DNA of 32,000 nucleotides from Cylindrospermopsis raciborskii Cr2010 (GTDB lineage: Bacteria > Cyanobacteriota > Cyanobacteriia > Cyanobacteriales > Nostocaceae). Positions 8,449 to 21,585 of this stretch are shown one piece after another. The notes under the pieces are model-generated. The model had not been told where the DNA came from and ran no database searches. It saw only the letters and a program-made list of their open reading frames with translations. The stretch spans positions 990,001 through 1,022,000 of the forward strand of contig NZ_CP065936.1 in assembly GCF_003367075.2 (NCBI RefSeq), written 5' to 3'. How positions within the stretch are numbered: position 1 is the stretch's first letter; each line of letters begins with the position of its first letter. The position numbers were made by a program, and so were the translations under genes.

Positions 8449-9228
8449 ATGAAGTATGAAAAAATCAGTATCACGTTTCGTCTGAGCTGGGAACTTTTTG
8501 TTCGTAATATGGTGGCTCGCCACCGCAATAGTCAATTGGGCTATCTATGGTTGATTTTGTCGCCTCTGGTATTAGCTGGTACATGGATTTTCTTGAAACG
8601 TAGCGGGAATTTCCACATTCCAGAGACCAATATTCCCTACGGGCCCTATGTAGTCACAGGGGTGTTTCTCTGGCAGGGGTTTTCCCGACAACTTAATAGC
8701 TCCCTATCCCATCTTTCTGCCTTTCGGCACCTATTTAGTAAATATCACTTCCCATGGGAGGCAATCGTCCTGGCGGGTTGGGCTGAAGCCGTCGTTGAGT
8801 TTGCCCTCAGCATGGGTGTTCTCTTGGTGGTGCTGAGGCTGATTGGTTTTGGCACCCTCTCGACCATCCTATTCTCGCTACCTCTGATGGCAAGCCTACT
8901 GTTGTTAGGTGGTGGGGTGGGCCTACTACTAGCCCCCATCGGATTACTTTATGAGGATATTGGACAAGGCACCAATTTATGCCTGCAACTGATGTTTTTC
9001 CTAATTCCCATTGTTTATCCCATGCCCACGGAGGGAATAGGCAAGCTAGTGGTGGAGTGGAACCCTGTGGCTGTGTTACTGGTTGCTGCCCGCGAGACTC
9101 TTTTGATAGGCCGGGTTTCCATGTCCTTCCAGACCATCCTGGCCAGTTTGATATCTACGGGGGTGGCCATTCTGGCTTTAGTCTTTTTGAGGCTGGCCCG
9201 TCCCCATCTCGCCGTGAGGGCTGGCTGA
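8449..9228 (+). CDS. ABC-2 type polysaccharide/glycolipid exporter permease (Wzm/TagG-like)
   Basis: The 259-aa ORF has six predicted hydrophobic helices. The N-terminus (RHRNSQLGYLWLILSPL) is typical of ABC-2 permeases. Its stop overlaps the start of the ATPase (cTGATGg at 9226-9230). Confidence 0.8.
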   Translation: MKYEKISITFRLSWELFVRNMVARHRNSQLGYLWLILSPLVLAGTWIFLKRSGNFHIPETNIPYGPYVVTGVFLWQGFSRQLNSSLSHLSAFRHLFSKYHFPWEAIVLAGWAEAVVEFALSMGVLLVVLRLIGFGTLSTILFSLPLMASLLLLGGGVGLLLAPIGLLYEDIGQGTNLCLQLMFFLIPIVYPMPTEGIGKLVVEWNPVAVLLVAARETLLIGRVSMSFQTILASLISTGVAILALVFLRLARPHLAVRAG

Positions 9229-10538
9229 TGGGTGAGCGCAGTATACTAGAGATTAAGGGCGTTAGCCAGCGGTTTTCCCGCAGCATGCGCCATGCTTTGC
9301 GGTATGGGGTCTATGACATCTTCCAGCAACTCATGCCATCCCAGGGTGATCGGGCCGGACAGCTAAGACCTGGGGAGTTTTGGGCCCTACGTGATGTTAG
9401 TTTTTCCCTCAAGGCCGGGGAGTCATTGGGGATTTTAGGCAATAACGGCGCTGGCAAAAGCACCCTACTGAAGTTAATTGCTGGAATTTATCGGCCCACA
9501 GTCGGACACGTTCGAGTGAGGGGACGCATTGGTGCGATCATCGAGTTGGGCTCAGCTTTTGCCCCCAATCTATCGGGTCGGGAAAATATCCGTCTCCAGG
9601 CCCTGCTCCATGGCTACAGCCCAGGGTTATTACGTCGTCAAATGGAGGATATCCTGGCTTTTGCCGATCTAGGCGACTTTATTGATAGCCCGGTTCAGCA
9701 CTACAGCACCGGCATGCGGGCTCGGCTGGGGTTTGCGGTAGCGGTGCACGGTAACCCCGACCTCTTACTGGTGGATGAGGTACTGGCCGTAGGCGATTTG
9801 TCCTTCCAAAATAAGTGCCTGCGACTGGTAGAAAGGTTTCGCCAACAGGGCGGGGCTGTAGTGTTCGTTGGCCATAATCCTTATCAAATGCAGGCGGCTT
9901 GTGAGCGTGGCATTATCCTCAACCAGGGTTGCATTCACTTCGATGGTTCGATTGTAAATGCCATCGATCTGGTGCTAGATGGCGCTGAATCAGCTTCACA
10001 CCAAGACCCTACTTTGTCTACTGCGGGTCAGTTCCCAATCCAGGCGGCTAGTGATGCCAGCGCTTGCCTCCTCTTTGAGGTAGAAAGTACGGCCATTGCC
10101 TATCAACCACCGATCCCTAAGGCAAGGCACGGATCAGCTACAATAGATTTCACCTTGGTTGTCCACCGATCCCCAATCAGGCTGAACGGGCTAGCTGCCA
10201 TTTTCCCTCAGCAGGGTTCCCATGCGATCGCAGTATCTATCAGCGATGCGGTGGTTTTATCCCCGGGTTTACAAAAACTGACGATGGCAATCCCATCTTT
10301 GCCCCTGATACCTGGCAGTTACCTGGTAAAACTCTGTTTGATCGATGAAAGTACTTCCTTTTCGCTATGGAACCAGGGTTGGTCAGATAGGCCGCTAGAT
10401 TTCCACATCCCTGGAGAAGGATGTTCCCACGGAAATATCGCAAAGTCCCTGTCCTCAAAGATTTTTCTTGCCAGCCAGATTGATGTAGAAACCTCCTTAC
10501 CGGGTGACAAGCGGGTTGAAGATGAGATGTGGCAATAA
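9228..10538 (+). CDS. ABC exporter ATP-binding protein (Wzt/TagH-like) with a ~190-aa C-terminal extra domain
   Basis: Walker A is GNNGAGKST, the signature is YSTGMRARLGFA and Walker B is LLLVDEVLAVGD. The start is set at ATG 9228 (MGERSILEIKGV). The ORF-track start at 8979 lies inside the permease gene. The C-terminal region contains LPLIPGSYLVKLCLID, which resembles Wzt_C. Confidence 0.85.
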   Translation: MGERSILEIKGVSQRFSRSMRHALRYGVYDIFQQLMPSQGDRAGQLRPGEFWALRDVSFSLKAGESLGILGNNGAGKSTLLKLIAGIYRPTVGHVRVRGRIGAIIELGSAFAPNLSGRENIRLQALLHGYSPGLLRRQMEDILAFADLGDFIDSPVQHYSTGMRARLGFAVAVHGNPDLLLVDEVLAVGDLSFQNKCLRLVERFRQQGGAVVFVGHNPYQMQAACERGIILNQGCIHFDGSIVNAIDLVLDGAESASHQDPTLSTAGQFPIQAASDASACLLFEVESTAIAYQPPIPKARHGSATIDFTLVVHRSPIRLNGLAAIFPQQGSHAIAVSISDAVVLSPGLQKLTMAIPSLPLIPGSYLVKLCLIDESTSFSLWNQGWSDRPLDFHIPGEGCSHGNIAKSLSSKIFLASQIDVETSLPGDKRVEDEMWQ

Positions 10539-10604
10539 TTTGAGAAAATAAGGGTGTAAAAAAATAGGGGCAAGGAAGCCCCAAAACAACAAAAGGAGCA
10601 GTCA

Positions 10605-11531
10605 GTGAATCGTTTATTTGCAGACCTGGAATTACAAAAACAGTTCTTGTCTACTGGATATATCCAGGCCCCCATACTCTCTAACCTGGAAGTAAACTAC
10701 CTACTAGGTGAAATTAATAAGCTATGCCCCCATGATAGCTTTAATCCCCACCTGGACAAAAAGTACTATATTACCTACCATTGCACGTCCCTTGATAAAA
10801 ACTTGGATTATAGAAAGAAGGCTTTCGATCTGATAAAAGATATCTTTGAGCCCTATTTAAAGGGTTTCATGCCCGATTTTGAAATCCTGTCCTGTAACTT
10901 TTTTATCAAGCCTCCCTACACAGGGATGTTGAGAATTCACCAGAACTGGCCAGTTCTAGATTTAGATGATACCAGCGTTACACTGTGGTGCCCTTTACAG
11001 GATGTGGATGCCCATAACGGTACCCTGCATCTCGTTCCTGGTAGCCATAAAATTCTTCCCCATGTAGAAAGTATAGAAGCGGCCGTTGGTTTCCCCTACT
11101 TCAAAGACTTCGAAAACGCCCTGGTAGAAAAGTATCTTCAGCCTATGATATTGAAGGCTGGGGAAGGTCTGATCTTTGATGAGTCCTTAATTCATTGGAC
11201 GCCAGCCAATAACTCGAGTAGGCCCCGCATCGCTGTCCAGATTACGGCTTTCCCAAAGAACAAGACTCCCGTTCTATACCTACGTGACAAGCAGCATCCA
11301 GAACGATTTGAGAAATTCGAAATCTCTCCAGAATTCTATCTGACGGAGGAGCTAAACGAGCATGCTGTGCGCCAACATCCGCGCAGGAGTCTGGGATTTG
11401 TAGAGAACAAAAATCGCTCCATATCCGAAGCAGAGTTCATTCAATTACTCAAACAAGGGAATGAGATTCGTCATCAGATCTACGCCAGAAAACAACTTTT
11501 TAACTCCGAGGAAATTCCATGCGAAATATAA
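10605..11531 (+). CDS. PhyH-fold (phytanoyl-CoA dioxygenase family) Fe/2OG-oxygenase-like protein, paralogue 1
   Basis: It has a GTG start with an AAAGGAG RBS. Family blocks are VTLWCPLQDVDAHNGTLHLVPGSHK and FDESLIHWTPANNSSRPR. The HxD position reads H112-Q-N114. Confidence 0.7.
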   Translation: MNRLFADLELQKQFLSTGYIQAPILSNLEVNYLLGEINKLCPHDSFNPHLDKKYYITYHCTSLDKNLDYRKKAFDLIKDIFEPYLKGFMPDFEILSCNFFIKPPYTGMLRIHQNWPVLDLDDTSVTLWCPLQDVDAHNGTLHLVPGSHKILPHVESIEAAVGFPYFKDFENALVEKYLQPMILKAGEGLIFDESLIHWTPANNSSRPRIAVQITAFPKNKTPVLYLRDKQHPERFEKFEISPEFYLTEELNEHAVRQHPRRSLGFVENKNRSISEAEFIQLLKQGNEIRHQIYARKQLFNSEEIPCEI

Positions 11532-12391
11532 TCTCGAATCAGAGTCAAAACTCCCATCTGATTGAGAAGGGCTATGTTCAGCATCAGCTTTTATCAGCAT
11601 CGGAAATTCAGTATTTATTGGGTGAGGTTCGTAAGCTTTATCCCGAAAGTATGTTTCTACCCAAAGCAGATGAATCTTCTGATCCTGACATTACGACGAG
11701 CTATCTGGCTAGTGATATAGCCCTGCGGGAACAGGTATCTCAAATTATCCGGGAAACCCTGTCCCCCCACCTAGACACCCTGCTGGAGAATTACCGTATT
11801 CTTGCCTGTGGATTATTTGTTAAGGCCCCAAAGGGTGGATGGTTTGATCTGCATTATCACCCAACTGCTGTTGAAGATCTAAAACACTGGGTTATTGATA
11901 TCTGGTGTCCTTTACAGGAAACCGATTTTTCCAACGGTACATTTTGTGCTGTTCCCGGAAGTCATAAAATCTTTCCCAGGATTATTGACTGCTCTCCCCA
12001 AGATCCTCCTTTTTACCAAGGCTATGCTGAGGAGATTCGTCATCAGTATTCGGTGGCGATACCGGCAAAAGCCGGAGAAGCTATTCTGTTTGAAGACAGT
12101 TTGCTCCACTGGTCTCCACAAAATTTGACAGATTCACCCCGCTATGCGATTCACTGTACCTGTATTCCCAGGGAAGCAACAGCCGTTTATATTTATCTTA
12201 ATCCAGGGGATTCTAAATTTGAAATCTATGAAGTCACCGATCAGTTTTTTATTGAACGCACACCTTCAACCGAGCATGATAACCTGAAACTGCTGGCAAT
12301 TTTGCCTAATAAAAATCCTTCCTACACCTTTGAGGAGTTTAAAGAGAGAATGGAAAATTGTAATACAATTAGGAAATCGATGTTTTGTTGA
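11519..12391 (+). CDS. PhyH-fold oxygenase-like protein, paralogue 2
   Basis: It overlaps the upstream gene by 13 nt. Family blocks are IDIWCPLQETDFSNGTFCAVPGSHK and FEDSLLHWSPQNLTDSPR. The HxD position reads H112-Y-H114. Confidence 0.7.
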   Translation: MRNIISNQSQNSHLIEKGYVQHQLLSASEIQYLLGEVRKLYPESMFLPKADESSDPDITTSYLASDIALREQVSQIIRETLSPHLDTLLENYRILACGLFVKAPKGGWFDLHYHPTAVEDLKHWVIDIWCPLQETDFSNGTFCAVPGSHKIFPRIIDCSPQDPPFYQGYAEEIRHQYSVAIPAKAGEAILFEDSLLHWSPQNLTDSPRYAIHCTCIPREATAVYIYLNPGDSKFEIYEVTDQFFIERTPSTEHDNLKLLAILPNKNPSYTFEEFKERMENCNTIRKSMFC

Positions 12392-12459
12392 ATTTCAAAC
12401 CTAGCTAACCTTACCCATAAATTTGATTAGGTATAAACTAATACTTTCGGGAAATAGAT

Positions 12460-14397
12460 ATGCGTCAAGTTATTCGAGACAAGGACCTAAACCACCTGCT
12501 CCTCAAGAGAGGGTATATTCAGCAACCACTGCTACTAGACTCGGAAGTTAGTTATTTGCTAGAGGAGACTCAGAAAGCCTATCCTGAAAGTAGGTTTTCT
12601 CCCGATAAAGCCAATATTTCCCAGTCCTATGTCGCCAACAGTTACACAGATCAATCGGAGGAAGTCCGTGCGATTGGTCCTAAGATTATACAGAATATTT
12701 TATCGCCCCATATCGAGGATCTACTGGATGACTACCGGATTCTCTACTGCGGGCTATTCGTTAAAGCTCCAAGGGGTGGCTGGCTGGATATTCATTATCA
12801 TCCAACCGTAGTGGAGGATTTAAAGCACTGGATCATCGATATCTGGTGTCCATTGCTGGATACAGACCTATCTAATGGCACCCTCTGTGTTGTTCCGGAG
12901 AGCCATAAAATCTTCCCAGAGGTTATTGACTATCCTTCCGAGACGGCTCTTTTTTGTCGAGACTATAAGCGAAATATTCGTGAAAAGTATTCCATTGCCC
13001 TGCCATCAAAAGCTGGGCATGGGGTGATTTTTGAAGATAGTTTACTCCATTGGTCACCCCAGAATTTGACAAATTCTGCCCGTTACGCGGTTCATTGCAC
13101 CTGTATTCCTAGAGAAGCAATTGCTGTTCATATTCATTTTGACTCCAGGTCTCCTCAACAGTTTGAAATCTATGAAGGGACAGATAAATTTTTTGAAGAA
13201 GAATTTGGTAGACCCGTACCACGACCTGGGGATCTAAAGCTACTTAAAATTATTCCTAATCAGAATCGTCCCTACGGGTTTGAAGAGTTTCAAGAGCGCA
13301 TGGGGAATGCAGCCCAACTGCGCCAAGAACTTTATCCAGATAGTTACTATGTTTCTCCGGTAGAATTTGCTAACCTGCTTCAGAAAGAGCAGGAAATGTA
13401 CCGGGAAGTTCACTATCCTATCCCGATCTCTGAGGAATTAGCTGCAGAGCCTATCCTCATGGATGCGGCTACGCGGTTATTAAATGGTCCACCGCAGGAG
13501 GTACAACCCCAAACAGCCAAGATACCACCCTTACTGAGCCGCATCACTGCCACTGTCAAGCGGTTACTTAGGGCGCAGTCTCGGTCAACGCGGAACATTT
13601 CCCAGCCGTCCGAGGTGGTTCGGGATGTACGTTCCCCTGTTAACCAACATACCGTTGCCGATGTTAAACGCTACTACGAAAAATGGACCCGTAGCTATAT
13701 CGAAGGTTTTGGAGAGGTTTTTCAGGGATCAAGACCCACCTCTACGGACGAATTGCTTGAGTATTTGATTCAATCCGCCAGGTTAGAAGATGGGATTAGG
13801 GTCTTAGACGCGGGTTGTGGAGTGTGTGGACCAGCCATTAGATTTGCTGAACAGTTTAACTTAAATATTGAAGCCCTCACCCTTGCCCAGGTGCAGGTTG
13901 AGGAATCTCAAAAACGCATTAAAGCTAAGGGATTGGAACACCAGATTAATGTCAGGCAGGGCGATTTTCATCACCTGGCTCAGTTGTATCCGGCTAACAG
14001 TTTTGACCGAGTCCTATTTCTGGAATCCTTATGCCATGCTGAAGATTATCGTCGAGCTTTAGAACAGGCTAAAAAGGTCCTTAAACCGGGTGGCTTTCTC
14101 TATATCAAGGATTTTTACGCCGTTGATCACCGTTCTTGCCCTGAGTTACTGGAGTTACATGCTAAAGATCTACGGGAGTTAAACCGAATCTACTGCCTGG
14201 TAATGCCAGATCTTCCAGGTATGGTAGATATAATCAGCGAGTTAGGATTTGACATCTATTACATGCGTAAGCCTATGTATGCCTATTCTCCGGCGGCATG
14301 GAAAAACTTTATGCGGCATACCAATACCTTTTGGGTTAGAGAGTCAGGAAAGGCGATCGAAGACATTGAATTTCTGGCCTATAAGCCCTTGAATTGA
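12460..14397 (+). CDS. Fusion protein: N-terminal PhyH-fold domain (paralogue 3) + linker + C-terminal class I SAM-dependent methyltransferase
   Basis: The first ~290 aa closely parallel paralogue 2 (IDIWCPLLDTDLSNGTLCVVPESHK; FEDSLLHWSPQNLTNSAR). The C-terminus has SAM motif I VLDAGCGVCGP, the acidic loop and KPGGFLYIKDF. Confidence 0.75.
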   Translation: MRQVIRDKDLNHLLLKRGYIQQPLLLDSEVSYLLEETQKAYPESRFSPDKANISQSYVANSYTDQSEEVRAIGPKIIQNILSPHIEDLLDDYRILYCGLFVKAPRGGWLDIHYHPTVVEDLKHWIIDIWCPLLDTDLSNGTLCVVPESHKIFPEVIDYPSETALFCRDYKRNIREKYSIALPSKAGHGVIFEDSLLHWSPQNLTNSARYAVHCTCIPREAIAVHIHFDSRSPQQFEIYEGTDKFFEEEFGRPVPRPGDLKLLKIIPNQNRPYGFEEFQERMGNAAQLRQELYPDSYYVSPVEFANLLQKEQEMYREVHYPIPISEELAAEPILMDAATRLLNGPPQEVQPQTAKIPPLLSRITATVKRLLRAQSRSTRNISQPSEVVRDVRSPVNQHTVADVKRYYEKWTRSYIEGFGEVFQGSRPTSTDELLEYLIQSARLEDGIRVLDAGCGVCGPAIRFAEQFNLNIEALTLAQVQVEESQKRIKAKGLEHQINVRQGDFHHLAQLYPANSFDRVLFLESLCHAEDYRRALEQAKKVLKPGGFLYIKDFYAVDHRSCPELLELHAKDLRELNRIYCLVMPDLPGMVDIISELGFDIYYMRKPMYAYSPAAWKNFMRHTNTFWVRESGKAIEDIEFLAYKPLN

Positions 14398-14479
14398 TTA
14401 TTCGTGTTGCTTCCAGGAGTTAGCTTAAATCCCTGGTGTCAGATTTTAAAGAGATAGAGAGTGCAGCCGTTTCACCACT

Positions 14480-14496
14480 AAAGGCTTTGCCTTTTT
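14480..14496 (+). terminator. Weak intrinsic terminator candidate after the fusion gene
   Basis: AAAGGC-TTT-GCCTTT hairpin followed by TT. The stem is short and AT-rich. Confidence 0.25.
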
Positions 14497-14703
14497 AAAG
14501 AAAAGAATTAGCTACGTTAGTGGATTTTGTCAACCGGTTAGTATCTCCTTCCTTAGACAATGGGAATCACAAGAAAATCGCCGGCACGGAAGCCACTTGG
14601 CTTTAGACAGGAAGTGCCAACCGCGAATTTATTCGCCTTGATATTTAACCGTGATGCGGATCTTCAATATTCCAGTGTTGTCTTCATGTTGTTTCGTGGC
14701 TGC

Positions 14704-14733
14704 TATTGACAAGTAAATCATATCTCAACTATA
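14704..14733 (+). promoter_or_regulatory. Promoter candidate of the TnpB relic (TTGACA-18 nt-TATACT)
   Basis: There are near-consensus -35 and -10 hexamers ~35 nt upstream of the MYGCQQ start. Confidence 0.45.
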
Positions 14734-14736
14734 CTT

Positions 14737-15342
14737 TTGAAATCAACAAACATTGAGGGTCGAACAATGTACGGATGCCAACAAGTTCTTATCAAGTCCG
14801 ATAAATCAATAACAGCGATATTGGAGTACGTCTGCACAGAAGCTAAAAAGCTGACAAATTGTGGCGTTTACTATTCTAGGCAGATGTACTTTATTGAAAA
14901 TAAGATTGGTGCTATTGTTTTTGGATGGAATAAAGGACAAAAAGATAGTATTGATTTAGGGTCTAAAAACAATCAGAAGTTTGTGCAAATTCCCACAGCA
15001 AGATTAAAAGACCGTATTGCTCAATTATGTAAACAATACGGAATAGATTTTATTGAAACAGAAGAATCATACACTTCTCAATCATCGTTTTTTGATTGCG
15101 ACAATATACCTAAATTCGGTGAAAAACCCGAAGGGTGGGAAGCAAGCGGGAAACGAGTTAGTCGTGGAGTATATCAAACTTCTGATGGGTTCAAAATTAA
15201 TGCGGACTGTAATGGTGCTGCTAATATTTTGAAAAAAGTAGCGGTGATGCTAGGAATTGATCTTAGCGGAATCAGTAGAGGCTGTTTAAGCCAGCCTCAG
15301 AAAGTTCGTTTATGGACTCTTCAGAAATCTCCGTGTCTTTAG
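14737..15342 (+). pseudogene. tnpB: IS200/IS605-family TnpB (OrfB) relic with a large in-frame internal deletion
   Basis: The N-terminus MYGCQQVLIKSDK...YYSRQMYF (likely true start ATG 14767) is joined directly to the C-terminal RuvC-II/III region. That region reads GWNKGQKD...NQKFVQIPTARLKDRI...ETEESYTSQ...NADCNGAANILKKV. The ORF is ~200 aa against ~400 aa for intact homologues. No tnpA is present. Confidence 0.75.
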
Positions 15343-15400
15343 ACCGGAGAAGCTTAATGATTTTTATAACCTGACCCTCAAAAACCAAAGTATTGGATAG

Positions 15401-16441
15401 ATGCCCATGTATAAATACTTGAAGATTAACCAATGGTGGGGCAACAAGATCAGTCCCCTAATGGCCTATGCCTTTCTGGGTGTATCTCATGATTCGACTC
15501 AACCGTCTGCCCTCTCCCTGACGGTGCAGTTACTGCTGTTTTTGCTGGCCTGTTTTGGCATTGCTGGTTTCGGTCATCTCTTTCTTGATGCCTTTGATCA
15601 GCGGGAGGATCGCCTGAACGGTAAGTCCAATGGCTGGCTGAGCCTAGGTAAGGTCAAGGCTAGCCTGGTACTTTCTTTACTGTTTATAACGGCCTGGCTG
15701 CCACTCTACTTTCTCCCCCATTGGGCCACGGTACGGTGGCTGGTGGCCGGAGAGTTTATCCTATTTATAATCTATGCCGTGCCACCTTTGCGGTTTAAGG
15801 AACGGGGCATGCCAGGCATTATTGTTGATGGCCTCTATGGCTATGTAATGCCTGCCCTTGTAGCTTGGACGATATTTGCTCCTGAACCTCAAGGATTATC
15901 AGCTTTTACCTATCCGGTATGCCTGCTGCTCTGGCTGCTTCCCAAGGGTATACGCCATATACTGCGTCATCAGTACTATGATTTTGATGGCGATTGTGGG
16001 GCCGGAGTTAGCACCTTTGCCGTGCGCCATGGTCGCACCGCCACCCTAAAGGTGATTCAAAACTATCTGCTGCCCATTGAGCTGCCGGCTATGGTGCTGG
16101 CGCTGACGGTGCTTTCCTGGCCAATGATTTTACCTATGATTGGCTTCATGGCCTTTTCCGGTTGGGAATGGAGAGTGCTGCGTCAACAGTGGCTGCAGCC
16201 CGTACCCCCGCCCCGTCTCTGGAAACCGATTGAATGGTCAGAATGGCTGGGTATGCGGTTCCTGTCTACCTTCACCGAACTCCTGCTACCCCTGCTTTCT
16301 CTATGGGTTATGTTACTGCGCCATCCATCCCTATGGCCCCTGTCATTGGTTTACCTCCTGATTGCCGGTTGGCCCTTAAAGCTCTGGTGGGGTGAAGTGA
16401 GTCCCCTGGTATTGAAACGATTCGATGGAGCCCAGCGATGA
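15401..16441 (+). CDS. UbiA-superfamily prenyltransferase-like integral membrane protein
   Basis: The protein is multi-pass. The first Asp-rich motif is LDAFDQREDRLNGK (DxxDxxxD). YAVPPLRFKERG follows. The second motif is YDFDGDCGAGVSTFAVRHG. Confidence 0.7.
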   Translation: MPMYKYLKINQWWGNKISPLMAYAFLGVSHDSTQPSALSLTVQLLLFLLACFGIAGFGHLFLDAFDQREDRLNGKSNGWLSLGKVKASLVLSLLFITAWLPLYFLPHWATVRWLVAGEFILFIIYAVPPLRFKERGMPGIIVDGLYGYVMPALVAWTIFAPEPQGLSAFTYPVCLLLWLLPKGIRHILRHQYYDFDGDCGAGVSTFAVRHGRTATLKVIQNYLLPIELPAMVLALTVLSWPMILPMIGFMAFSGWEWRVLRQQWLQPVPPPRLWKPIEWSEWLGMRFLSTFTELLLPLLSLWVMLLRHPSLWPLSLVYLLIAGWPLKLWWGEVSPLVLKRFDGAQR

Positions 16442-16569
16442 CTTCCCAGGTCTTACTTCACCCCGTTATCAAGGTTCCGGCAGATGTCCTGGAGCGGTTT
16501 CGAGGTAAGGCATCGCTTCTAGCGACCGATCCTGTATACGCCCCCTATAGGGCTGAATACCTAAACTAA
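16438..16569 (+). CDS. Hypothetical 43-aa small ORF, translationally coupled (ATGA overlap) to the UbiA-like gene
   Basis: ATG 16438 overlaps the TGA at 16439-16441. The ORF (MTSQVLLHPVIKVPADVLERFRGKASLLATDPVYAPYRAEYLN) fills almost all of the spacer before the GT4 gene. It is below the ORF-track length cutoff and I recognise no homology. Confidence 0.25.
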   Translation: MTSQVLLHPVIKVPADVLERFRGKASLLATDPVYAPYRAEYLN

Positions 16570-16578
16570 GGAGACGAT

Positions 16579-19095
16579 ATGACCCGACGCATCATTGTTA
16601 GTCTACCGGAGTGGAGTCTGGGAGGCGCTCACATCTGTGCTGCCAACTTGGTTCGGGGTCTACGGGCCAGAGGAGAAGATGCCCGTCTGTTGTTAACCGA
16701 GGAACACACCCCCCTGGTCAATCATCCCCGCTATATTCCACCGCTACCTGCTGATTTACCCATTGAACTGATTCGCCTTACCTCCCATGACCATTGGAGC
16801 GATGCCTGGATGGCGATTGAAAGGTTCCTGGAGGAACAGGCTCCCTGCATCTATGTTCCCGTTGTTGATTTTCGTTCTACTTGCATTACAGCCCGCCTCT
16901 CCTCCCGGGTCGTGGTTGTGGCAACCATGATGACGGACTATCGATTAGAGTACGAACATGTGGAGCGATTGGTTCGCCACTGGGATGCGGTAGTGGCTGT
17001 GAACTCAGCCATTCAGCGGCGGGCGGCCCTCTGGGTGCCCTGGCTGGCGGCTAACCTGGTCACGATTCCCATCTGTGTACCCATGCCCGGTGATGTACCC
17101 ATCCGCTCAGCCCAGGGCAAACTCCGGTTGGTATACCATGGTAGGTTATGCCAGTACCAAAAGCGCAGCCTCGACTTCATCGATCTGCTTGAGCAACTTG
17201 AAGTCCGTAGTGTAAATTTTTGTCTTACCCTAATCGGCGATGGTGAGTGCCGTCCAGCCCTTGAAAAGGCAGCGACCCGGTTTATCTCCGATGGACGCTT
17301 GGTACTATCAGGTACCCTTCCCTACGAGCAAACCCTGGAGGCCCTCAGGCATCAGGACGTTTATATCCTGCCTTCAGAATTTGAAGGCACTCCCAATGCC
17401 CTGCTAGAGGCAATGGCCTATGGTTGTGTACCCGTGGTTTCCGACATCGAAACCCTAACGGATATCGTAGCCGAGGGTAAGACAGGATTTCGCTGTGCGA
17501 TCGGAGATATGCAGGCCTTTGCTGCGGCTGTGGCTCGACTAGCCGCTGACCCGGTGGAACGAGTCGCCATGGCTGAGCGGGCCGCGACCAGTGTACGTCA
17601 GCTTGGCTACGACCTGGAAACCATGATTGATCGGTGGCAAGCCCTATTTGATCGCCTGGAGACCCGTACCAGACATGCCCGATATCGTCCCCGTGGCTTT
17701 ATGACTGCCCCCCCCGCTACCTTTGGTGGAGTTTCAATCCTGCCAGGTGAGTACAGTTCCTTCGCACGACTGGTGAATCAGGTTCCCCTCTGGCCTGAAC
17801 CCCGGACCGCCACTCGGGTAAGCCAGCACCACCGCCCCCATATCGCGCCCCTCAGTGAGCATCGCATCATTCTAGCCACCACAAAAGGTCGCATTAGTGG
17901 TGTTGATGTTTTTGCGATAAACCTAGTTCAGGCACTTCTGTCTCGCGGTCTAAAGGCGGAGATTTTAGTTACCCGTCCCGATGAAAAGGTTCCAGATCCA
18001 ATGCCCTTTCCAGATCATATACCCGTACGTACCCTTGCTGTTGAACCAGGGAGCAGTTGGCAAAAACGATGGGCGCTGCTACGCCGTACCCTCATAGAAC
18101 ATAGTCCCTGCATCTACATTCCCAACTATGACTGGTACCATTCTGGCATCTGCGGTACTCTACCAGCAACTGTAAAGGTGATTGGTATTGCCCACAGCGA
18201 TGACCCCGCTCACTATGCCCACTGTTTGAAGCTCGGGTCTACCTGGAACGGGATAGTAGCTGTTAGTAAGGTAGTTGCCAATCATATTAGGGATCTGGCC
18301 CCTGAGTTGGCAGACAGATTATACACTATTCCCTATGGTGTGGGTCTGCCTTCCTCTCCCATAAGTACCGTGCGATCACCCCATGCGCCCCTGCGATTAC
18401 TCTATGCTGGTCGGTTAATCCGTTATCAGAAGCGGGTGTTTGACCTACTGTGTATCCTTGATGCTTTAGCAACCCGTAATGTGTCTGTGGAACTCACTGT
18501 TGTGGGCAGTGGTCCGGAGGAGCGGGAATTTCTCCAGTCCTCGGCCCAGTCCCTAGTCAGTGGCAGGATGCGCTTCATGGGGGGTATGGCGAACCACCAC
18601 GTGCAAACGCTGATGGTACAGGCAGATATTTTTCTGTTACCATCGGCCTTTGAGGGGTTGCCTGTGAGCCTTTTGGAGGCTATGGCCCACGGTACTATAC
18701 CCGTGGTAACCCACTCTCGTAGTGGGGTAGATGAGGTCATACGCCACGGTGAAAATGGTTTTTTAGTAGCCGTGGGTGATATAGATGCCTTTGCTAACTA
18801 CATTACCCATCTGTCCGAAAACCCTCAACAGATGGCGCAGATGGCACAGGCAGCCCGCCAGACTATTGAAACCGGGGGATTTACCATTCATGCCATGACG
18901 GAGTCTTATCTGCACCTAATGGAGCAGATAGTGTCACAGCCCTTCTCCCGTCCAGTCACAGGCATACTTCCCCCAGAGGATATACGAGGCTGGCGTTCGT
19001 GGCTACCACCGGAGCTTCCTAGTCCAACTGTTGCTGTTCAAAGTCTGAGAAAACGGGTCGAACTAATATTAAAGGGGCTAGGATCCTATTTCTAG
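16579..19095 (+). CDS. Bi-domain family 4 glycosyltransferase (two complete GT-B/GT4 modules in one 838-aa protein)
   Basis: There are two EX7E regions: PSEFEGTPNALLEAMAYGCVPVVSD and PSAFEGLPVSLLEAMAHGTIPVVTH. Each is preceded by its own Rossmann-like N-domain. A GGAGA RBS lies upstream. Confidence 0.85.
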   Translation: MTRRIIVSLPEWSLGGAHICAANLVRGLRARGEDARLLLTEEHTPLVNHPRYIPPLPADLPIELIRLTSHDHWSDAWMAIERFLEEQAPCIYVPVVDFRSTCITARLSSRVVVVATMMTDYRLEYEHVERLVRHWDAVVAVNSAIQRRAALWVPWLAANLVTIPICVPMPGDVPIRSAQGKLRLVYHGRLCQYQKRSLDFIDLLEQLEVRSVNFCLTLIGDGECRPALEKAATRFISDGRLVLSGTLPYEQTLEALRHQDVYILPSEFEGTPNALLEAMAYGCVPVVSDIETLTDIVAEGKTGFRCAIGDMQAFAAAVARLAADPVERVAMAERAATSVRQLGYDLETMIDRWQALFDRLETRTRHARYRPRGFMTAPPATFGGVSILPGEYSSFARLVNQVPLWPEPRTATRVSQHHRPHIAPLSEHRIILATTKGRISGVDVFAINLVQALLSRGLKAEILVTRPDEKVPDPMPFPDHIPVRTLAVEPGSSWQKRWALLRRTLIEHSPCIYIPNYDWYHSGICGTLPATVKVIGIAHSDDPAHYAHCLKLGSTWNGIVAVSKVVANHIRDLAPELADRLYTIPYGVGLPSSPISTVRSPHAPLRLLYAGRLIRYQKRVFDLLCILDALATRNVSVELTVVGSGPEEREFLQSSAQSLVSGRMRFMGGMANHHVQTLMVQADIFLLPSAFEGLPVSLLEAMAHGTIPVVTHSRSGVDEVIRHGENGFLVAVGDIDAFANYITHLSENPQQMAQMAQAARQTIETGGFTIHAMTESYLHLMEQIVSQPFSRPVTGILPPEDIRGWRSWLPPELPSPTVAVQSLRKRVELILKGLGSYF

Positions 19096-19154
19096 GGCTT
19101 TAAGGAAAATTACCTGCTAATACAGTTCATTAACCATAGCTAATTTCCATTACC

Positions 19155-19931
19155 ATGGCCATATCAAAACGTCGCACCTTCAAAGATTCGGTTCTTCAGG
19201 CAGCCTTCCGAACCCAGGGCTATGTGGTAGTAAATTTGGATGAATCGGAGAAAATGAATCGCTTAGCTGAGGCTTATCGAAGTCTCTATCCATACAATCA
19301 GGAAGGTTGTGTATTTTCCTGTCATGATACGGATTGCAATCGCCGGTTCAAGGCACAAAACTTCGTGCGTCAAGTGATTGGGGAAAAAGCATCGGTTTTT
19401 TTGGATAATTACAAATTTGTCAATAGTTCCTTTGTTGCCAAATACCCTGGTGAAAATGGTGCAATCCCCCCACATACTGACTTCACCCTTGTAGACGATA
19501 GGTACTACTCTGCCGTGTCCATCTGGGTCCCTTTGACGGAAACCACTGCTGCTGCAGGACGCTTGCATGTATTACCAGGATCCCATCGTTATACACCCCT
19601 ATGTGGGTCAAATCTTTTCAGAAAGTATACAGACATCAAACTCTCCAGCATGACAGAGATTGAGCTGGAGATTGGACAGGCTGTCTGTTACGACCCGCGA
19701 ACCATTCACGCCTCCCCTGCCAACACATCATCGAGTCCCCGGATTGCCGGAAATTGTGTGCTGATCCCAGAGGAAGCTGACCTCTGGCATGTAACTTGTC
19801 AAGATCAGGACATTCTGATCTATGCCGTTGACGATGGCTTCTACAGTGGCCTAGGCCTCACAATTACTCACAAGCTATTGAGCAATTACAGAGTCATTCA
19901 TGCGGAACACTTTGAAAGATTCGTCCTTTAA
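19155..19931 (+). CDS. PhyH-fold Fe(II)/2OG dioxygenase, paralogue 4 (canonical triad)
   Basis: The triad is H107-T-D109 (PPHTDF) with the distal His in DPRTIHASPANTSSSPR. Other family blocks are SIWVPLTE and RLHVLPGSHR. Confidence 0.7.
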   Translation: MAISKRRTFKDSVLQAAFRTQGYVVVNLDESEKMNRLAEAYRSLYPYNQEGCVFSCHDTDCNRRFKAQNFVRQVIGEKASVFLDNYKFVNSSFVAKYPGENGAIPPHTDFTLVDDRYYSAVSIWVPLTETTAAAGRLHVLPGSHRYTPLCGSNLFRKYTDIKLSSMTEIELEIGQAVCYDPRTIHASPANTSSSPRIAGNCVLIPEEADLWHVTCQDQDILIYAVDDGFYSGLGLTITHKLLSNYRVIHAEHFERFVL

Positions 19932-21106
19932 GTTACCTTAAAGTCTTTCTGACAAATGACAATGTAGCTTAAAGAAGTACACCAAACTATACTTTGTATT
20001 ATTTGGGCATGAATTGAATAGGTAATAAAGGTAGGAATCAATAGAGTTAAGCAAAGCAAGATTAATACTAAGAGGTTAAATCTATTTGGTCTTTTAAAAT
20101 TTAGCTCGATTATTGCTAATAACAGGAAAACTAACATCACATTATCATAAATTAGATGATAGGTCCATAGTCGACCTATTCCAGAAGCAATAGCAAAGAG
20201 AAAGAGCAAAGAGCAATCCTTAAATAAATAAAATAACCACACAGTAACAACAGTAGCAACTATAGCTAATAAAATTGTTGCTAAGAGTGGGTTAATTCCA
20301 AACTTGAGCAGAACATTGATTCCCGAATATCCTCTATCAACATAATATTGGGAAACCTTAACAACTTTCTCAATCATATAAATAGGAGAAACTTTTACAA
20401 TTAATCCTATTATTGAACTAGAAACCACAATATATAAACAGCAAGCTATGACCGCATTAATTCTTTTCTTGATGATGGGAATAAAAAAGTAAAGGGCAGA
20501 AATATTTGGTTTGAGTAAAGCCAACCCTAAAATTAACCCAGCTGATATGTTAGCATTGCCCTGCAATAGCCAAAACATTAGTACTAATAAAGCATTGATA
20601 ATAATGCCATATTGTCCAATACCCAGAGTAGTGGTATGAGTACCAAGTGACAAACAAGTAACTATTGTAAACCAGGCTTTTAATTTTCCATAGGGTTTGC
20701 CGATTTGATAAGCAAAAATGGCTAAAATAACTAGAGAGATGGCATTTAAAAGAACATGATACCACAGGGTTAATTCAAAAGGAATGGGTGGGAAAAATAT
20801 GAAACCTGAGAAAAAAGCCCAAGCTGGATATCCCCCAGATGTTACAGCACCCAGTTGAGGATCTATCAAAGGTGAACCGTTGGTAATATCATAGGGATAT
20901 AAACCATAATAAATATACCTTTGTTCTTTCCAACGAGTATATAAATCTGTAGATTGTGCATTTATTATCAATTTATAAAAACCTATGATAAGGTAAAGAA
21001 AACAGAGTATGCTTAAAGCTGCGGATAGGCCAAAGATAATTTTTGAGGGGGTAAGCTTTTTAAAAAACAGTAGTTTATTCATTCTCTTGCTTAAAACTGA
21101 CTTCAT
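19928..21106 (-). CDS. Polytopic membrane protein, GT-C-like (DUF2029/GT87-like polyprenyl-phosphate-sugar-dependent glycosyltransferase candidate)
   Basis: It has ~11-12 hydrophobic helices. The first-loop motif is STDLYTRWKEQRYIYYGLYPYD (D..Y......G..pY pattern). The gene is very AT-rich. An alternative start is at 21082. Confidence 0.45.
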   Translation of the reverse strand: MKSVLSKRMNKLLFFKKLTPSKIIFGLSAALSILCFLYLIIGFYKLIINAQSTDLYTRWKEQRYIYYGLYPYDITNGSPLIDPQLGAVTSGGYPAWAFFSGFIFFPPIPFELTLWYHVLLNAISLVILAIFAYQIGKPYGKLKAWFTIVTCLSLGTHTTTLGIGQYGIIINALLVLMFWLLQGNANISAGLILGLALLKPNISALYFFIPIIKKRINAVIACCLYIVVSSSIIGLIVKVSPIYMIEKVVKVSQYYVDRGYSGINVLLKFGINPLLATILLAIVATVVTVWLFYLFKDCSLLFLFAIASGIGRLWTYHLIYDNVMLVFLLLAIIELNFKRPNRFNLLVLILLCLTLLIPTFITYSIHAQIIQSIVWCTSLSYIVICQKDFKVT

Positions 21107-21121
21107 GAGTAAAGATTATTA

Positions 21122-21195
21122 TAGCCAACTTACTTAAAGCTGCTGCGCCTTTTTCCAGTAGCATTTCCAGTCTATCCAGTGCCATCGCACCCTTT
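21122..21195 (-). pseudogene. Diverged fragment of an aroE-like 3' end
   Basis: It aligns to aroE at 23382-23455, with ~85% identity over the best 61 nt by hand. Its translation GAMALDRLEMLLEKGAAALSKL compares with aroE GAIALDGLEMLVQQGAAALKLW. Confidence 0.6.
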
Positions 21196-21426: not shown

Positions 21427-21527
21427 TATATATACCTTTTTGCGTTAAAAATTAATTTTATTTGATTAACGGAATAGATGTTTTTCCGAGTTCTACCATT
21501 CTAGGAGAAATACTACAAAGGTTTCAA

Positions 21528-21585
21528 CTACTGGATAACAGTAAAATTATTTACTACGTATTCGATTAGCTGTTCTAAGCTTTCC
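21528..21585 (-). pseudogene. Duplicated cysC 3' fragment (last ~19 codons)
   Basis: It matches 2416-2473 and ends abruptly at 21585. Confidence 0.85.

Follow-up and report, generated by a model that had tools for sequence, protein, structure and literature searches.

We report that positions 8449–19931 of the window, the whole 32,000-nt stretch of the Cylindrospermopsis raciborskii Cr2010 chromosome analysed here, carry an 11.5-kb gene block, wzm through phyH4, that came from a Leptolyngbya/Nodosilinea-type cyanobacterium and in which all eight genes are under purifying selection. On balance, we favor reading the block as a functional, horizontally acquired cassette that uses an ABC-transporter-dependent pathway to assemble and export a tailored, lipid-linked glycan or glycolipid, probably an isoprenoid-linked one. 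The block contains the following features:

8449–9228, + strand: wzm, ABC-2 type polysaccharide permease, first gene of the imported block (Pfam ABC2_membrane, 36 bits)
9228–10538, + strand: wzt, ABC ATPase with a C-terminal beta-rich domain (ABC_tran, 86.6 bits)
10605–11531, + strand: PhyH1, PhyH-fold protein with H-Q-N instead of HxD (Pfam PhyH, 57.3 bits)
11519–12391, + strand: PhyH2, PhyH-fold protein with H-Y-H instead of HxD (Pfam PhyH, 46.1 bits)
12460–14397, + strand: PhyH3–methyltransferase fusion, H-Y-H type (Pfam PhyH plus Methyltransf_11/25/31 and CMAS)
14452–15357, + strand: internally deleted IS200/IS605 TnpB relic, ORF 14737–15342 (Cas12f1-like_TNB, 37 bits; NCBIfam guided_TnpB)
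15401–16441, + strand: UbiA-superfamily intramembrane transferase (Pfam UbiA, 62.5 bits; cutoff 34.2)
16438–16569, + strand: 43-aa ORF, remnant of a Sulfotransfer_3 gene (alignment with the intact Nodosilinea gene)
16579–19095, + strand: two-module GT4 glycosyltransferase, candidate polymerase (Glycos_transf_1, 192 bits, two stretches)
19155–19931, + strand: PhyH4, canonical Fe(II)/2-oxoglutarate oxygenase, H-T-D...H, last gene of the imported block (Pfam PhyH, 67.7 bits)

The sequence-only reading had described a co-oriented array of this content, which the ORF listing and Pfam searches bear out; its PhyH and UbiA family calls hold under profile search (Pfam PhyH four times, Pfam UbiA once). 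The junctions it had cited as signs of translational coupling are present as well and could be read directly: TGATG at 9226–9230 between wzm and wzt, ATGA at 16438–16441, and a 13-nt overlap at 11519–11531, where the ATG of PhyH2 at 11519 precedes the PhyH1 stop codon at 11529–11531. Its gene list was incomplete, however, since the TnpB relic in the gap 14398–15400 had been overlooked, and what it took for a "coupled" 43-aa ORF is in fact what a deletion has left of a sulfotransferase gene.

These two features show that the cassette is eroded in Cr2010. Comparison of the translation of the 43-aa ORF, MTSQVLLHPVIKVPADVLERFRGKASLLATDPVYAPYRAEYLN, with the intact 304-aa Nodosilinea gene (L006:11032–11946) showed that about 262 codons were deleted in frame, leaving 7 codons at the start and about 35 at the end. 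In the Leptolyngbya locus L009, the sulfotransferase was lost too, with different breakpoints in the DNA alignment, and the other genes are intact; the ancestral form of the cassette had from one to at least five Sulfotransfer_3 genes. The TnpB relic (GC 0.37) lies between the PhyH3–methyltransferase and UbiA genes, and its match to guided_TnpB covers profile positions 287–389 only. L009 is without this segment, the flanking homologies being 22 bp apart there, and contigs of related assemblies end at the relic.

Leptolyngbya and Nodosilinea genomes carry the block in colinear form, at 83–94% nucleotide identity. Alignment to L009 covers positions 8469–14451, 15358–16432, 16528–19079, and 19097–19915 of the window, so that homology starts within wzm and stops within the PhyH4 gene; L006/L010, L011, and L012 are likewise colinear. 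Across all eight genes, dS versus L009 is 0.12–0.43 and dN/dS 0.14–0.26 (wzm 0.19, PhyH1 0.14, PhyH2 0.15, double GT4 0.17), with amino acid identities to the L009 orthologues of 89% for Wzm and 87% for the double GT4. From this colinearity and these dN/dS values, it follows that the cassette was acquired horizontally and is under purifying selection. An exact protein look-up identified the host as C. raciborskii Cr2010. Identical proteins are found in at least two further C. raciborskii assemblies, and the block is absent from other strains of the species, in agreement with the horizontal acquisition proposed earlier.

The foreign composition suggested by a few 60-nt samples was recomputed (GC 53% at 9241, 60% at 16621, 53% at 13501, 28% at 3661, and 25% at 20221) and extended to whole genes and tetranucleotides, which showed it to be foreign and not uniform. 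Block genes have a GC content of 0.42–0.54 and a GC3 of 0.39–0.56, compared with 0.33–0.46 and 0.28–0.40 in host and flanking genes. The tetranucleotide correlation of the block with the C. raciborskii core is r = 0.72, whereas 30 random 5-kb host chunks average 0.92 and never fall below 0.87, so that chance does not account for the foreign composition. With the Leptolyngbya/Nodosilinea flanks, the correlation is r = 0.88. The intermediate GC content of the PhyH genes does not reflect amelioration, as it is also found in the Leptolyngbya/Nodosilinea loci.

Although the block itself is foreign as proposed, the strain-specific unit is larger: the block is nested in a 19.1-kb glycan island, flanked by 391-bp direct repeats, to which these features belong:

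2082–2473, no strand: left direct-repeat copy, the 5′ 232 nt of sucC plus upstream sequence (repeat search; blastn against island-free strains L057–L059)
2416–3015, − strand: adenylyl-sulfate (APS) kinase, strain-specific, left end of the island (APS_kinase, 216 bits; NCBIfam, 263 bits)
6924–8375, + strand: UDP-galactopyranose-mutase-like (UGM-like) flavoprotein, PRK07208 family, in the low-GC part of the island just upstream of the block (PDB; NCBIfam NF005548, 674 bits)
19928–21106, − strand: GT87-like GT-C membrane glycosyltransferase, convergent with PhyH4, GC 0.33 (Pfam GT87, 32.9 bits; cutoff 25)
21195–21585, no strand: right direct-repeat copy, a truncated sucC 5′ fragment (same searches as for the left copy)

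The left repeat matches 21195–21585 with 97% and 88% identity (two repeat families). In three complete C. raciborskii genomes, Uma2 directly adjoins sucC with a spacer of about 255 bp, as judged from locus coordinates. The APS kinase forms a protein cluster of a single member, present only in Cr2010-type assemblies. The 6924–8375 protein matches Aspergillus fumigatus UGM (E 1e-17) and, over residues 7–451, Trypanosoma cruzi UGM (4dsg, E 3e-15) in the PDB and has a 55% identical homologue in the Leptolyngbya cluster L009. Given this mutase homologue and the APS kinase, the earlier statement that the window holds no sugar-nucleotide genes was wrong; its companion statement stands, as an initiating phosphoglycosyltransferase was found neither in the window nor in L009. 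The GT87-like gene has no counterpart in L009 or L006 and is unconserved in related loci.

The Wzt protein consists of an ATPase (residues about 50–245) with about 190 extra C-terminal residues, and its best PDB matches are TarH and Aquifex aeolicus Wzt (E 1e-50). Wzm and Wzt have NCBIfam matches as well. The beta core of the C-terminal domain spans residues about 283–373 (nt about 10074–10346). Pfam and PDB sequence searches gave no match between this domain and known carbohydrate-binding domains (CBDs), but a Foldseek search with an AF2 model returned the O12 Wzt CBD on top (5hno, E 7e-5), together with the A. aeolicus Wzt CBD (8dl0/7k2t/6o14/8dky), with 2r5o at rank 46. Since the model was built from four sequences only and has a pLDDT of 46.6, the assignment as a carbohydrate-binding-like domain is provisional. 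In the double GT4, both modules contain an ExxxxxxxE region, and GT4 structures are matched in the PDB.

The O9a-like logic proposed from sequence thus finds support in the Wzm/Wzt pair, the low-confidence model of the Wzt C-domain, the two-module GT4, and a methyltransferase domain closest to RebM, a sugar O-methyltransferase. As in E. coli O9a/O8, Klebsiella/Raoultella O12, and A. aeolicus WzmWzt, an extra C-terminal beta-domain on Wzt (with model matches to 5hno, 6o14/8dky, and 2r5o) is combined with a multi-module GT4 polymerase candidate, tightly coupled co-oriented genes, and a methyltransferase that could form a terminal cap. In contrast to O9a-type systems, the window shows neither a WbdD-like kinase nor a coiled-coil ruler, its methyltransferase is joined to a PhyH domain, and the cassette proper includes four PhyH-fold proteins, a UbiA-family enzyme, and, in its ancestral form, a sulfotransferase. 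The synechan (xss) cluster of Synechocystis PCC 6803 is also a cyanobacterial surface-glycan locus with sulfotransferases, but it follows a Wzx/Wzy-type pathway without UbiA or PhyH genes (PMC8205485), whereas the cassette uses Wzm/Wzt for export and has its sulfotransferase deleted in Cr2010.

All four proteins first described as PhyH-fold indeed match Pfam PhyH, but they are not equal, as only PhyH4 has the HxD...H motif. PhyH1–3 carry Asn or His for the carboxylate ligand and could be inactive. In a motif alignment, PhyH1 keeps the distal His and an Arg; its HQN variant recurs in L008, L009, L014, and L028 and is found across phyla, and the non-canonical triads of PhyH1–3 are common to the Leptolyngbya/Nodosilinea loci. 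A phmmer alignment of PhyH2 with human PHYH had a different register. In the PDB, PhyH4 is matched best by EvdO2 (4xab, E 2e-7) and SnoN/SnoK; the E-values are modest (2e-7 to 3e-3), but HxD, the distal His, and an Arg all align. EvdO2, SnoK, and SnoN abstract hydrogen from sugar carbons, leading to orthoester formation, C–C coupling, or epimerisation. Their substrates are antibiotics, whereas that of the cassette would be a lipid-linked glycan or isoprenoid. In the fusion protein, a linker of about 130 residues separates the PhyH domain (residues about 1–290) from a class I SAM methyltransferase (about 430–645), for which RebM is the best PDB match (3bus, E 2e-17), followed by MitM and a D-glucose O-methyltransferase (6uv6). 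The fusion also occurs in L009, L011, and L012; in L008, L014, L018, and L028, the methyltransferase is a separate gene.

The UbiA-family protein has both Asp-rich motifs intact (D63/D66/D70 and D194/D198) and a conserved PPxRFKERG signature. Foldseek with its AF2 model (pLDDT 88.4) ranked AfUbiA (4tq4) and UBIAD1 on top (TM 0.55–0.59) and the Mycobacterium tuberculosis phosphoribosyltransferase Rv3806c (8j8k) at rank 36 (TM 0.46). A family HMM profile detected DGGGP synthase, chlorophyll synthase, and UBIAD1 in the PDB, but no phosphoribosyltransferase (Rv3806c) even at E ≤ 10. By profile and model, the protein thus resembles true prenyltransferases more than Rv3806c. With DGGGP synthase (6m31), chlorophyll synthase (9sau), AfUbiA, and UBIAD1, it shares the nine-helix fold and both Asp-rich Mg/diphosphate motifs; it differs in being only 13–15% identical, in invariant PPxRFKERG and HQ..D...D signatures of its own, in about 50 extra C-terminal residues, and in its glycan-cluster context. 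It belongs to a distinct, uncharacterised clade: with the named NCBIfam UbiA equivalogs it scores at most 41 bits, where the cutoff is 205, and so is an orthologue of none, and the family comprises 856 cluster representatives at E ≤ 1e-30.

The UbiA gene is syntenic in five of five cyanobacterial loci, and in at least five phyla, members of its clade occur in linkage with Wzt, GT4, PhyH, and sulfotransferase genes. Neighbors in 47 related loci include Wzt (13), GT4 (18), PhyH/methyltransferase (11), Sulfotransfer_3 (8), P450 (4), trans-polyprenyl synthase (6), and a class II terpene-cyclase-like gene (9). Among unannotated metagenomic gene calls, the UbiA domain is fused to a window-type double GT4 (P0187, E 3e-100), to PhyH plus a terpene-cyclase-like domain (P0179, P0196), to a methyltransferase (P0130), and to FAD_binding_3 (P0215). 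The idea of a prenyl lipid gains support from these links and fusions and from the likeness to real prenyltransferases. The polyprenyl synthase and terpene-cyclase-like neighbors occur only where the UbiA protein is about 30% identical to that of the window; neither gene was found in the window or in close cyanobacterial loci. As the earlier reading had maintained, no characterised homologue or equivalent gene combination was found in the searchable literature. The recurrence of the combination across several bacterial phyla suggests a lipid-linked surface sugar of an unknown kind.

These homologies suggest a pathway in which the two-module GT4 would build a sugar chain at the cytoplasmic face, to be tailored by the RebM-like O-methyltransferase domain and the oxygenase-like PhyH proteins, PhyH4 presumably as a canonical 2-oxoglutarate enzyme akin to EvdO2 and SnoK/SnoN, which oxidise sugars, and PhyH1–3 being HxN or HxH variants; the ancestral sulfotransferase step would have been lost in Cr2010. 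In the manner of E. coli O9a, Klebsiella O12, and Aquifex, the carbohydrate-binding-like domain of Wzt may read the finished, modified end, and the molecule would then be exported by Wzm/Wzt. The gene neighborhoods seen in other phyla suggest that the UbiA-family protein is a true prenyl-diphosphate-using transferase and no phosphoribosyltransferase. It could make or decorate the isoprenoid lipid part, for instance by O-prenylating an acceptor later extended by the GT4, and the isoprenoid rather than the sugars may be the target of some oxygenases.

It is improbable that the UbiA-family protein is a polyprenyl-phosphate phosphoribosyltransferase (PPPRS/DPPRS type) supplying a lipid-linked pentofuranose donor to the GT87-like GT-C, as part of a "three-component" periplasmic side-chain system on an ordinary O-antigen cassette. 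Such systems with UbiA-family enzymes are known in ABC-transporter-dependent O-antigen loci (Citrobacter youngae O1/O2 ORF15/14/12; compare mycobacterial Rv3806c–DprE1/E2–Emb/Aft; PMC11127046), UbiA, methyltransferase, and PhyH genes lie beside wzm/wzt in Xanthomonas LPS cassettes (bioRxiv 10.1101/2022.03.02.482478), a GT-C gene adjoins the block in Cr2010, and in five distant (Calditrichia-type) loci, the UbiA-family gene is accompanied by genes for a PMT_2 GT-C and an SDR epimerase. However, the window protein is of another clade, its profile and structural neighbors being prenyl-diphosphate enzymes, and the window lacks a MATE/SMR/GtrA flippase, a 5′-phosphatase, and a DprE-like gene or epimerase. 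Moreover, the low-GC GT-C gene lies outside the imported block and is absent from the Leptolyngbya/Nodosilinea clusters, and the trans-polyprenyl synthase and terpene-cyclase-like partners suit prenyl-diphosphate rather than Und-P/PRPP chemistry. Another reading of the product is a small oxidised, methylated, and ancestrally sulfated terpenoid glycoside or glycolipid, meroterpenoid-like and not a polymer, with Wzm/Wzt as a mere lipid exporter and the double GT4 adding two sugars. UbiA, a class II terpene-cyclase-like domain, PhyH-type oxygenases, and a methyltransferase make up a meroterpenoid tool-kit, as in fungal austinol-type pathways; in related loci, these parts are fused or adjacent, and P450s replace PhyH in some. 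We consider this rather unlikely, as the apparent CBD-like domain of Wzt would be typical of polymer-cap recognition, the GT4 shares its two-module architecture with WbdA and other polymerases, the Leptolyngbya cluster and the Cr2010 island have another four to five glycosyltransferases and a UGM-like gene, and the window and close loci lack a terpene cyclase and a polyprenyl synthase.

Alternatively, the UbiA-family protein might stand outside the glycan pathway, as a hitch-hiker or in quinone or pigment metabolism, the cassette being an ordinary O-antigen/EPS variant with all tailoring on sugars. The closest solved relatives of the methyltransferase domain and PhyH4 do work on sugars, and in cyanobacteria several UbiA paralogues serve the quinone, tocopherol, chlorophyll, and haem pathways. 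Yet the gene sits within an operon-like array, its ATGA stop/start overlap shared with the sulfotransferase gene or remnant, and the conserved synteny, the linkage in at least five phyla, the fusions to GT4 and PhyH, and the lack of a fitting NCBIfam equivalog all make this unlikely. That the cassette is a decaying, non-functional relic of the transfer event would fit the sulfotransferase reduced to 43 codons, the inserted TnpB relic, and the three non-canonical PhyH triads, but it is very unlikely: those triads are shared with the Leptolyngbya/Nodosilinea loci, the HQN type even across phyla, L009 retained its remaining genes after its own sulfotransferase loss, and in Cr2010 the eight remaining ORFs are all full length, with low dN/dS and with identical proteins in the further C. 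raciborskii assemblies.

An ORF listing and Pfam/NCBIfam scans of window positions 8449-19931 return the gene list that a sequence-only reading had drawn up for this block, with two corrections: the 43-aa ORF that it had treated as a coupled gene in its own right is the deletion remnant of a Sulfotransfer_3 gene, and it had passed over a TnpB relic in the stretch 14398-15400. The genes are as follows.

8449-9228, forward strand: wzm (Pfam ABC2_membrane)
9228-10538, forward strand: wzt, with ABC_tran at residues 54-185 followed by ~190 additional C-terminal residues
10605-11531, forward strand: PhyH1 (Pfam PhyH)
11519-12391, forward strand: PhyH2 (Pfam PhyH)
12460-14397, forward strand: PhyH3-methyltransferase fusion (Pfam)
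14452-15357, forward strand: TnpB relic of the IS200/IS605 type, internally deleted (Pfam/NCBIfam)
15401-16441, forward strand: UbiA-family protein (Pfam UbiA)
16438-16569, forward strand: 43-codon ORF, sulfotransferase gene remnant
16579-19095, forward strand: two-module GT4 of 838 aa with two Glycos_transf_1 stretches
19155-19931, forward strand: PhyH4 (Pfam PhyH)

The junctions described earlier (TGATG at 9226-9230, a 13-nt overlap at 11519-11531 and ATGA at 16438-16441) are all present in the sequence, and five 60-nt GC samples from the same reading come to 53, 60, 53, 28 and 25% when recomputed. GC3 per gene is 0.39-0.56 in the block versus 0.28-0.40 in host and flank genes. The tetranucleotide usage of the block correlates with that of the host core at r=0.72, versus 0.87-0.92 or more for random 5-kb host chunks, and with that of the DNA flanking the related Leptolyngbya and Nodosilinea loci at r=0.88. 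The foreign composition proposed for the block thus holds well beyond chance. In the Leptolyngbya and Nodosilinea loci, too, the PhyH genes are lower in GC; this is therefore a property of the cassette, and amelioration is ruled out as its cause.

The gene order in three other complete C. raciborskii genomes is aroE-UPF0175-Uma2-sucC-sucD, with a short Uma2-sucC spacer (~255 bp in locus coordinates), and L057-L059 lack the island at this site. In the window (Cr2010 proteins UJL34484-34502), Uma2 and sucC are 19.1 kb apart. A 391-bp direct repeat at 2082-2473 and 21195-21585 (97% and 88% identity) borders this 19.1-kb island, and its right copy contains sucC cut down to a 5' fragment, together with the region upstream; a repeat search of the window gave this island-level repeat only, and none bounding the block itself. 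From this arrangement, the island seems to have integrated through recombination at sucC, not at a tRNA. Neither Rfam at gathering thresholds nor ARAGORN gave RNA genes in the window, so no tRNA integration site explains the island. Clusters of the core proteins are common to many strains; the island proteins are confined to Cr2010-type assemblies.

Within the island, 8469-19915 is colinear with a locus in a Leptolyngbya MAG (L009) at 83-94% nucleotide identity, and the block also matches two Nodosilinea genomes and one further uncultured MAG at 73-90%. Homology to L009 begins 20 nt into wzm and stops 16 nt short of the PhyH4 stop, so the block limits proposed from the sequence match the transferred unit almost exactly. 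All block genes compared with L009 have dS values of 0.12-0.43 and dN/dS values of 0.14-0.26; the transfer must accordingly be recent in comparison with the divergence of these cyanobacterial orders, and purifying selection has continued to act on the genes. The horizontal acquisition that had been proposed is upheld by the absence from L057-L059, the divergent tetranucleotide usage, the high identity to Leptolyngbya and Nodosilinea and the flanking repeats, and we regard it as highly probable; the data show a cassette that was imported and is subject to purifying selection. The remaining island genes, encoding an APS kinase, a GT2, a GT4, a second GT2, a flavoprotein and a GT87-like GT-C, are low in GC and lie outside the imported segment; homologues of the second GT2 and the flavoprotein occur in the Leptolyngbya cluster (54-55% identical).

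Wzm and Wzt, encoded together and coupled through TGATG, resemble O-antigen and teichoic-acid exporters (PDB matches TarH and A. aeolicus Wzt, E 1e-50). The C-terminal domain of Wzt gave no Pfam or PDB sequence match, and its sequence matches are confined to close cyanobacterial relatives: a word-indexed protein search returned four homologous proteins, and tblastn shows conservation of the domain in cyanobacterial loci alone, among them the more distant L008 at 35%. The AF2 model of this domain, which is beta-rich with ~7 beta-strands, is poor (pLDDT 46.6) and rests on a shallow alignment, because only these four sequences were available. When this low-confidence model was compared with the PDB using Foldseek, the top matches were solved Wzt carbohydrate-binding domains (CBDs), among them the O12 Kdo-cap binder 5hno (E 7e-5, 23% identity) and the A. 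aeolicus CBD (8dl0, 6o14 and the 3-O-methyl-mannose complex 8dky), with the O9a domain 2r5o at rank 46. The predicted fold provisionally supports cap-dependent export.

Both Glycos_transf_1 stretches of the double GT4 contain ExxxxxxxE regions, an architecture like that of the multi-domain polymerase WbdA, which makes this protein the polymerase candidate. No phosphoglycosyltransferase of the WecA type is encoded in the window or in the Leptolyngbya locus, an absence that is uninformative because wecA in E. coli also lies outside the O-antigen locus. The block contains no kinase domain of a WbdD-type chain terminator; the methyltransferase domain fused to PhyH3 is closest in the PDB to the sugar O-methyltransferases RebM and 6uv6, and may itself serve as the terminator. 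Exporter and polymerase would thus work as in the O9a, O12 and Aquifex systems, whereas the cassette differs from these in lacking a WbdD-type terminator and in adding a UbiA enzyme, PhyH paralogues and, ancestrally, sulfotransferases.

With 41-68 bits, all four PhyH proteins exceed the gathering cutoff of Pfam (22 bits). An HxD/E...H iron triad is found in one of the four, PhyH4, whose H-T-D...H residues align with those of EvdO2 and whose closest PDB matches are EvdO2 and SnoN/SnoK, oxygenases of the PhyH type whose targets are C-H bonds of sugars. A family alignment of 30 sequences puts H-Q-N at the triad position of PhyH1 and H-Y-H at that of PhyH2 and PhyH3; for PhyH2, phmmer gives a different register there. 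The distal His and an Arg ~12 residues after it are kept in all four proteins and in the 30 aligned relatives, and the Arg presumably binds the C5 carboxylate of 2-oxoglutarate. The HQN variant is conserved in Chitinophagales and Bacteroidota loci and is therefore a maintained variant rather than decay. A halogenase reading of the variants, prompted by a weak match of PhyH4 to TIGR01762, was ruled out: HxA/G occurs in none of them, and PhyH4 has HxD.

The protein encoded at 15401-16441 scores 62.5 bits against Pfam UbiA (cutoff 34.2) and keeps both Asp-rich motifs (D63/D66/D70 and D194/D198), which are conserved in 25 sequences; its family has invariant signatures of its own, PPxRFKERG and HQ..D...D. 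Its AF2 model is confident (pLDDT 88.4) and matches 4tq4 with a Foldseek probability of 1.00, consistent with the intramembrane transferase fold of the UbiA superfamily. Against PDB sequences, phmmer gave nothing at E<=1, and a family profile was needed; this profile matches DGGGP synthase, chlorophyll synthase and UBIAD1. The mycobacterial phosphoribosyltransferase Rv3806c is absent from the profile matches even at E<=10, and in the Foldseek search of the model, which places AfUbiA and UBIAD1 on top, Rv3806c (8j8k) ranks 36th with an E of 0.59. The NCBIfam matches are confined to generic 'prenyltransferase' models and to chlorophyll synthase models, and all stay under the respective cutoffs. 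The clade is small: in a set of 1.84 billion proteins, 856 cluster representatives reach E<=1e-30.

We analyzed the neighbourhood of the UbiA gene in 47 distinct related loci from species-representative genomes. GT4 is a neighbour in 18 of the 47, Wzt in 13, PhyH/methyltransferase in 11, a family that we call 'unk9' in 9, Sulfotransfer_3 in 8, trans-polyprenyl synthase in 6 and P450 in 4. Up to six PhyH paralogues occur in Chitinophagales loci and four in a Lysobacterales locus; the Lysobacterales PhyH/Wzt locus is among those with a polyprenyl synthase, and the P450-bearing loci also contain sulfotransferases. The 'unk9' family (unannotated, ~340 aa, invariant motif P-x-D-L-D-D-T) is class II terpene-cyclase-like, since its profile matches drimenol synthase (9mhs, E 2e-11) and squalene-hopene cyclase (E 8e-3). 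Fusions among the family representatives, read at the level of predicted proteins, join UbiA to a homologue of the double GT4 in the window (P0187, E 3e-100), to FAD_binding_3 (P0215, FAD_binding_3-UbiA), to an unknown domain and a methyltransferase (P0130, in that order), and to PhyH, terpene-cyclase-like and TPR domains (P0179 and P0196, PhyH-UbiA-terpene-cyclase-like-PhyH-TPR). Neighbourhoods and fusions show that the UbiA enzyme, GT4, PhyH proteins and methyltransferase belong to one predicted pathway. They also point to prenyl-diphosphate chemistry for UbiA; the isoprenoid partners are confined to loci in which UbiA shares ~30% identity with the protein of the window.

Sulfation appears to have been lost from this pathway in Cr2010. 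Directly after ubiA, Nodosilinea and two other loci have an intact 304-aa Sulfotransfer_3 gene whose stop/start overlap is ATGA; the 43-aa ORF in the window consists of the first 7 codons of this gene joined in frame to the last ~35. L009 has also lost the gene, with other breakpoints and only ~37 nt left. Sulfation was therefore probably part of the ancestral pathway and was lost at least twice, and this repeated loss offers a natural experiment on its role. The L008 locus (ENA contig_41189) has at least five Sulfotransfer_3 genes beside its UbiA-like gene; a B12-binding radical SAM enzyme and a separate methyltransferase are also found there. In the TnpB relic, ~50 N-terminal aa run directly into the RuvC/TNB part of the C-terminus; compared with L009, it is inserted between PhyH3-methyltransferase and ubiA. 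Assemblies of related strains break at this relic.

The flavoprotein gene at 6924-8375, directly upstream of wzm, encodes a eukaryote-type UDP-galactopyranose mutase homologue (T. cruzi 4dsg, E 3e-15, full length; NCBIfam PRK07208, 674 bits), of which the Leptolyngbya cluster has a 55% identical copy. The claim that the window holds no sugar-nucleotide genes is therefore incorrect, and the match hints at galactofuranose in the glycan.

Judged by homology, the double GT4 would extend a lipid-linked glycan at the cytoplasmic face, aided by the GT2 and GT4 enzymes of the flanks, while the mutase-like protein would supply UDP-galactofuranose. Tailoring of this glycan would fall to the PhyH proteins and the RebM-like methyltransferase, after which Wzt would recognize the finished end and Wzm/Wzt would export the product. 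Gene context suggests that the UbiA enzyme would transfer a prenyl group, creating or modifying the lipid moiety of the same molecule, and some of the oxygenases may act on that isoprenoid. That the block is a cassette for an ABC-dependent glycoconjugate is quite probable; prenyl transfer as the role of UbiA stands at about an even chance. We lean slightly towards the statement as a whole, namely an imported cassette for an ABC-dependent tailored glycan in which UbiA prenylates the lipid part of the same molecule.

The most concrete known alternative, a three-component pentofuranose system (PMC11127046) with UbiA as phosphoribosyltransferase of the Rv3806c/C. youngae ORF15 type, draws on the GT-C gene that abuts the block. 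However, the profile and structure searches gave the UbiA protein no specific relationship to DPPRS/PPPRS, the island ORFs include no flippase (MATE/SMR/GtrA), phosphatase or epimerase, and the GT87-like GT-C adjoins the block in Cr2010 only, being absent from L006 (Nodosilinea) and L009; such a system is decidedly improbable. A small terpenoid glycoside would fit the distant loci but is at odds with the CBD-like Wzt domain and the number of glycosyltransferases here, which leaves it an unlikely product in place of a polymer. Synteny and fusions contradict an ordinary O-antigen locus with an unrelated UbiA gene, to which we give a poor chance, and the dN/dS values and intact ORFs make a dead relic very unlikely.

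Beyond the tailored, exported and prenylated glycan that we favour, the cassette might represent an unrecognized class of surface glycoconjugate, a possibility that we hold tentatively and consider rather doubtful. Here a UbiA prenyltransferase would supply the membrane anchor instead of, or besides, a phosphoglycosyltransferase/undecaprenyl-diphosphate primer, working in some phyla with polyprenyl synthase and class II terpene cyclase. PhyH or P450 would hydroxylate the isoprenoid or the sugars, creating hydroxyls for methylation or sulfation; GT4 modules would lengthen the glycan, and its export would be handled by an O-antigen-type Wzm/Wzt equipped with a cap-reading domain. The HxN and HxH variants of PhyH would be catalytically active, with a metal site that has no carboxylate ligand.

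What is understood of ABC-transporter-dependent glycan assembly comes from a few enterobacterial, Aquifex and mycobacterial models, and to our knowledge the assembly line of none of these includes a prenyltransferase, several proteins resembling 2-oxoglutarate oxygenases, or sulfotransferases. Cylindrospermopsis is a bloom-forming toxic cyanobacterium, and an imported, strain-specific locus for a surface glycan could plausibly help to determine its susceptibility to phages and grazers; studies of CrV-type cyanophages are reported to use Cr2010 itself. The lack of a characterized equivalent, already asserted from the sequence, agrees with a full-text literature search, which found no characterized cluster combining PhyH, UbiA, sulfotransferase and Wzm/Wzt. 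Nearest is a Xanthomonas LPS cassette with wzm/wzt, UbiA, methyltransferase, PhyH, DprE-like and GtrA genes, whose account is descriptive only (bioRxiv 10.1101/2022.03.02.482478); apart from this preprint, the search gave only the paper on three-component pentofuranose systems. The combination is conserved across Cyanobacteria, Bacteroidota, Gamma- and Alphaproteobacteria and Acidobacteriota and is physically fused in some organisms. On these grounds it may stand for a new mode of anchoring or capping glycans for export, and for a new substrate class for PhyH-type enzymes, including variants without the carboxylate ligand.

Several minor observations concern related loci and the surroundings of the block. 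The 'unk9' gene is adjacent or fused to the UbiA-like gene in loci L015, L017, L024, L031, L035, L037, L040, L042 and L048 and in representatives P0179, P0191 and P0196. In Flavobacteriales-type proteins, the UbiA-like domain is followed by a fused domain of ~300 aa, 'c15' (L013, L015, L017; P0093, P0128, P0130, P0132, P0148, P0231). Pfam gave no match for 'c15', and both 'unk9' and 'c15' were ruled out as hidden sulfotransferases (hhalign probability <1%). The cassette of Nodosilinea sp. LVE1205-7 (L006/L010, CP089923) is without PhyH1 and has Wzt, PhyH3-methyltransferase and the double GT4 each in 2-3 ORFs, which indicates either sequencing frameshifts or pseudogenization. In Cr2010, the strain-specific APS kinase gene (2416-3015, reverse strand) is retained in the island despite the deletion of the only sulfotransferase of the cassette; the window showed no other. 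At ~27050 the window lacks ~138 bp that other C. raciborskii strains have between their genes for the BipA-like protein and the M50 protease (L057 7037-7175). Just inside the right end of the island, a 78-nt fragment (21134-21211) is 81% identical to an internal part of aroE (23394-23471) and looks like debris of a past rearrangement. The Uma2-family ORF at 21682-22569 (reverse strand) contains six tandem 21-nt units at 21747-21935 (62-86% identical), where comparison of the window with other strains gives self-offset matches; the number of these repeats may vary between strains.
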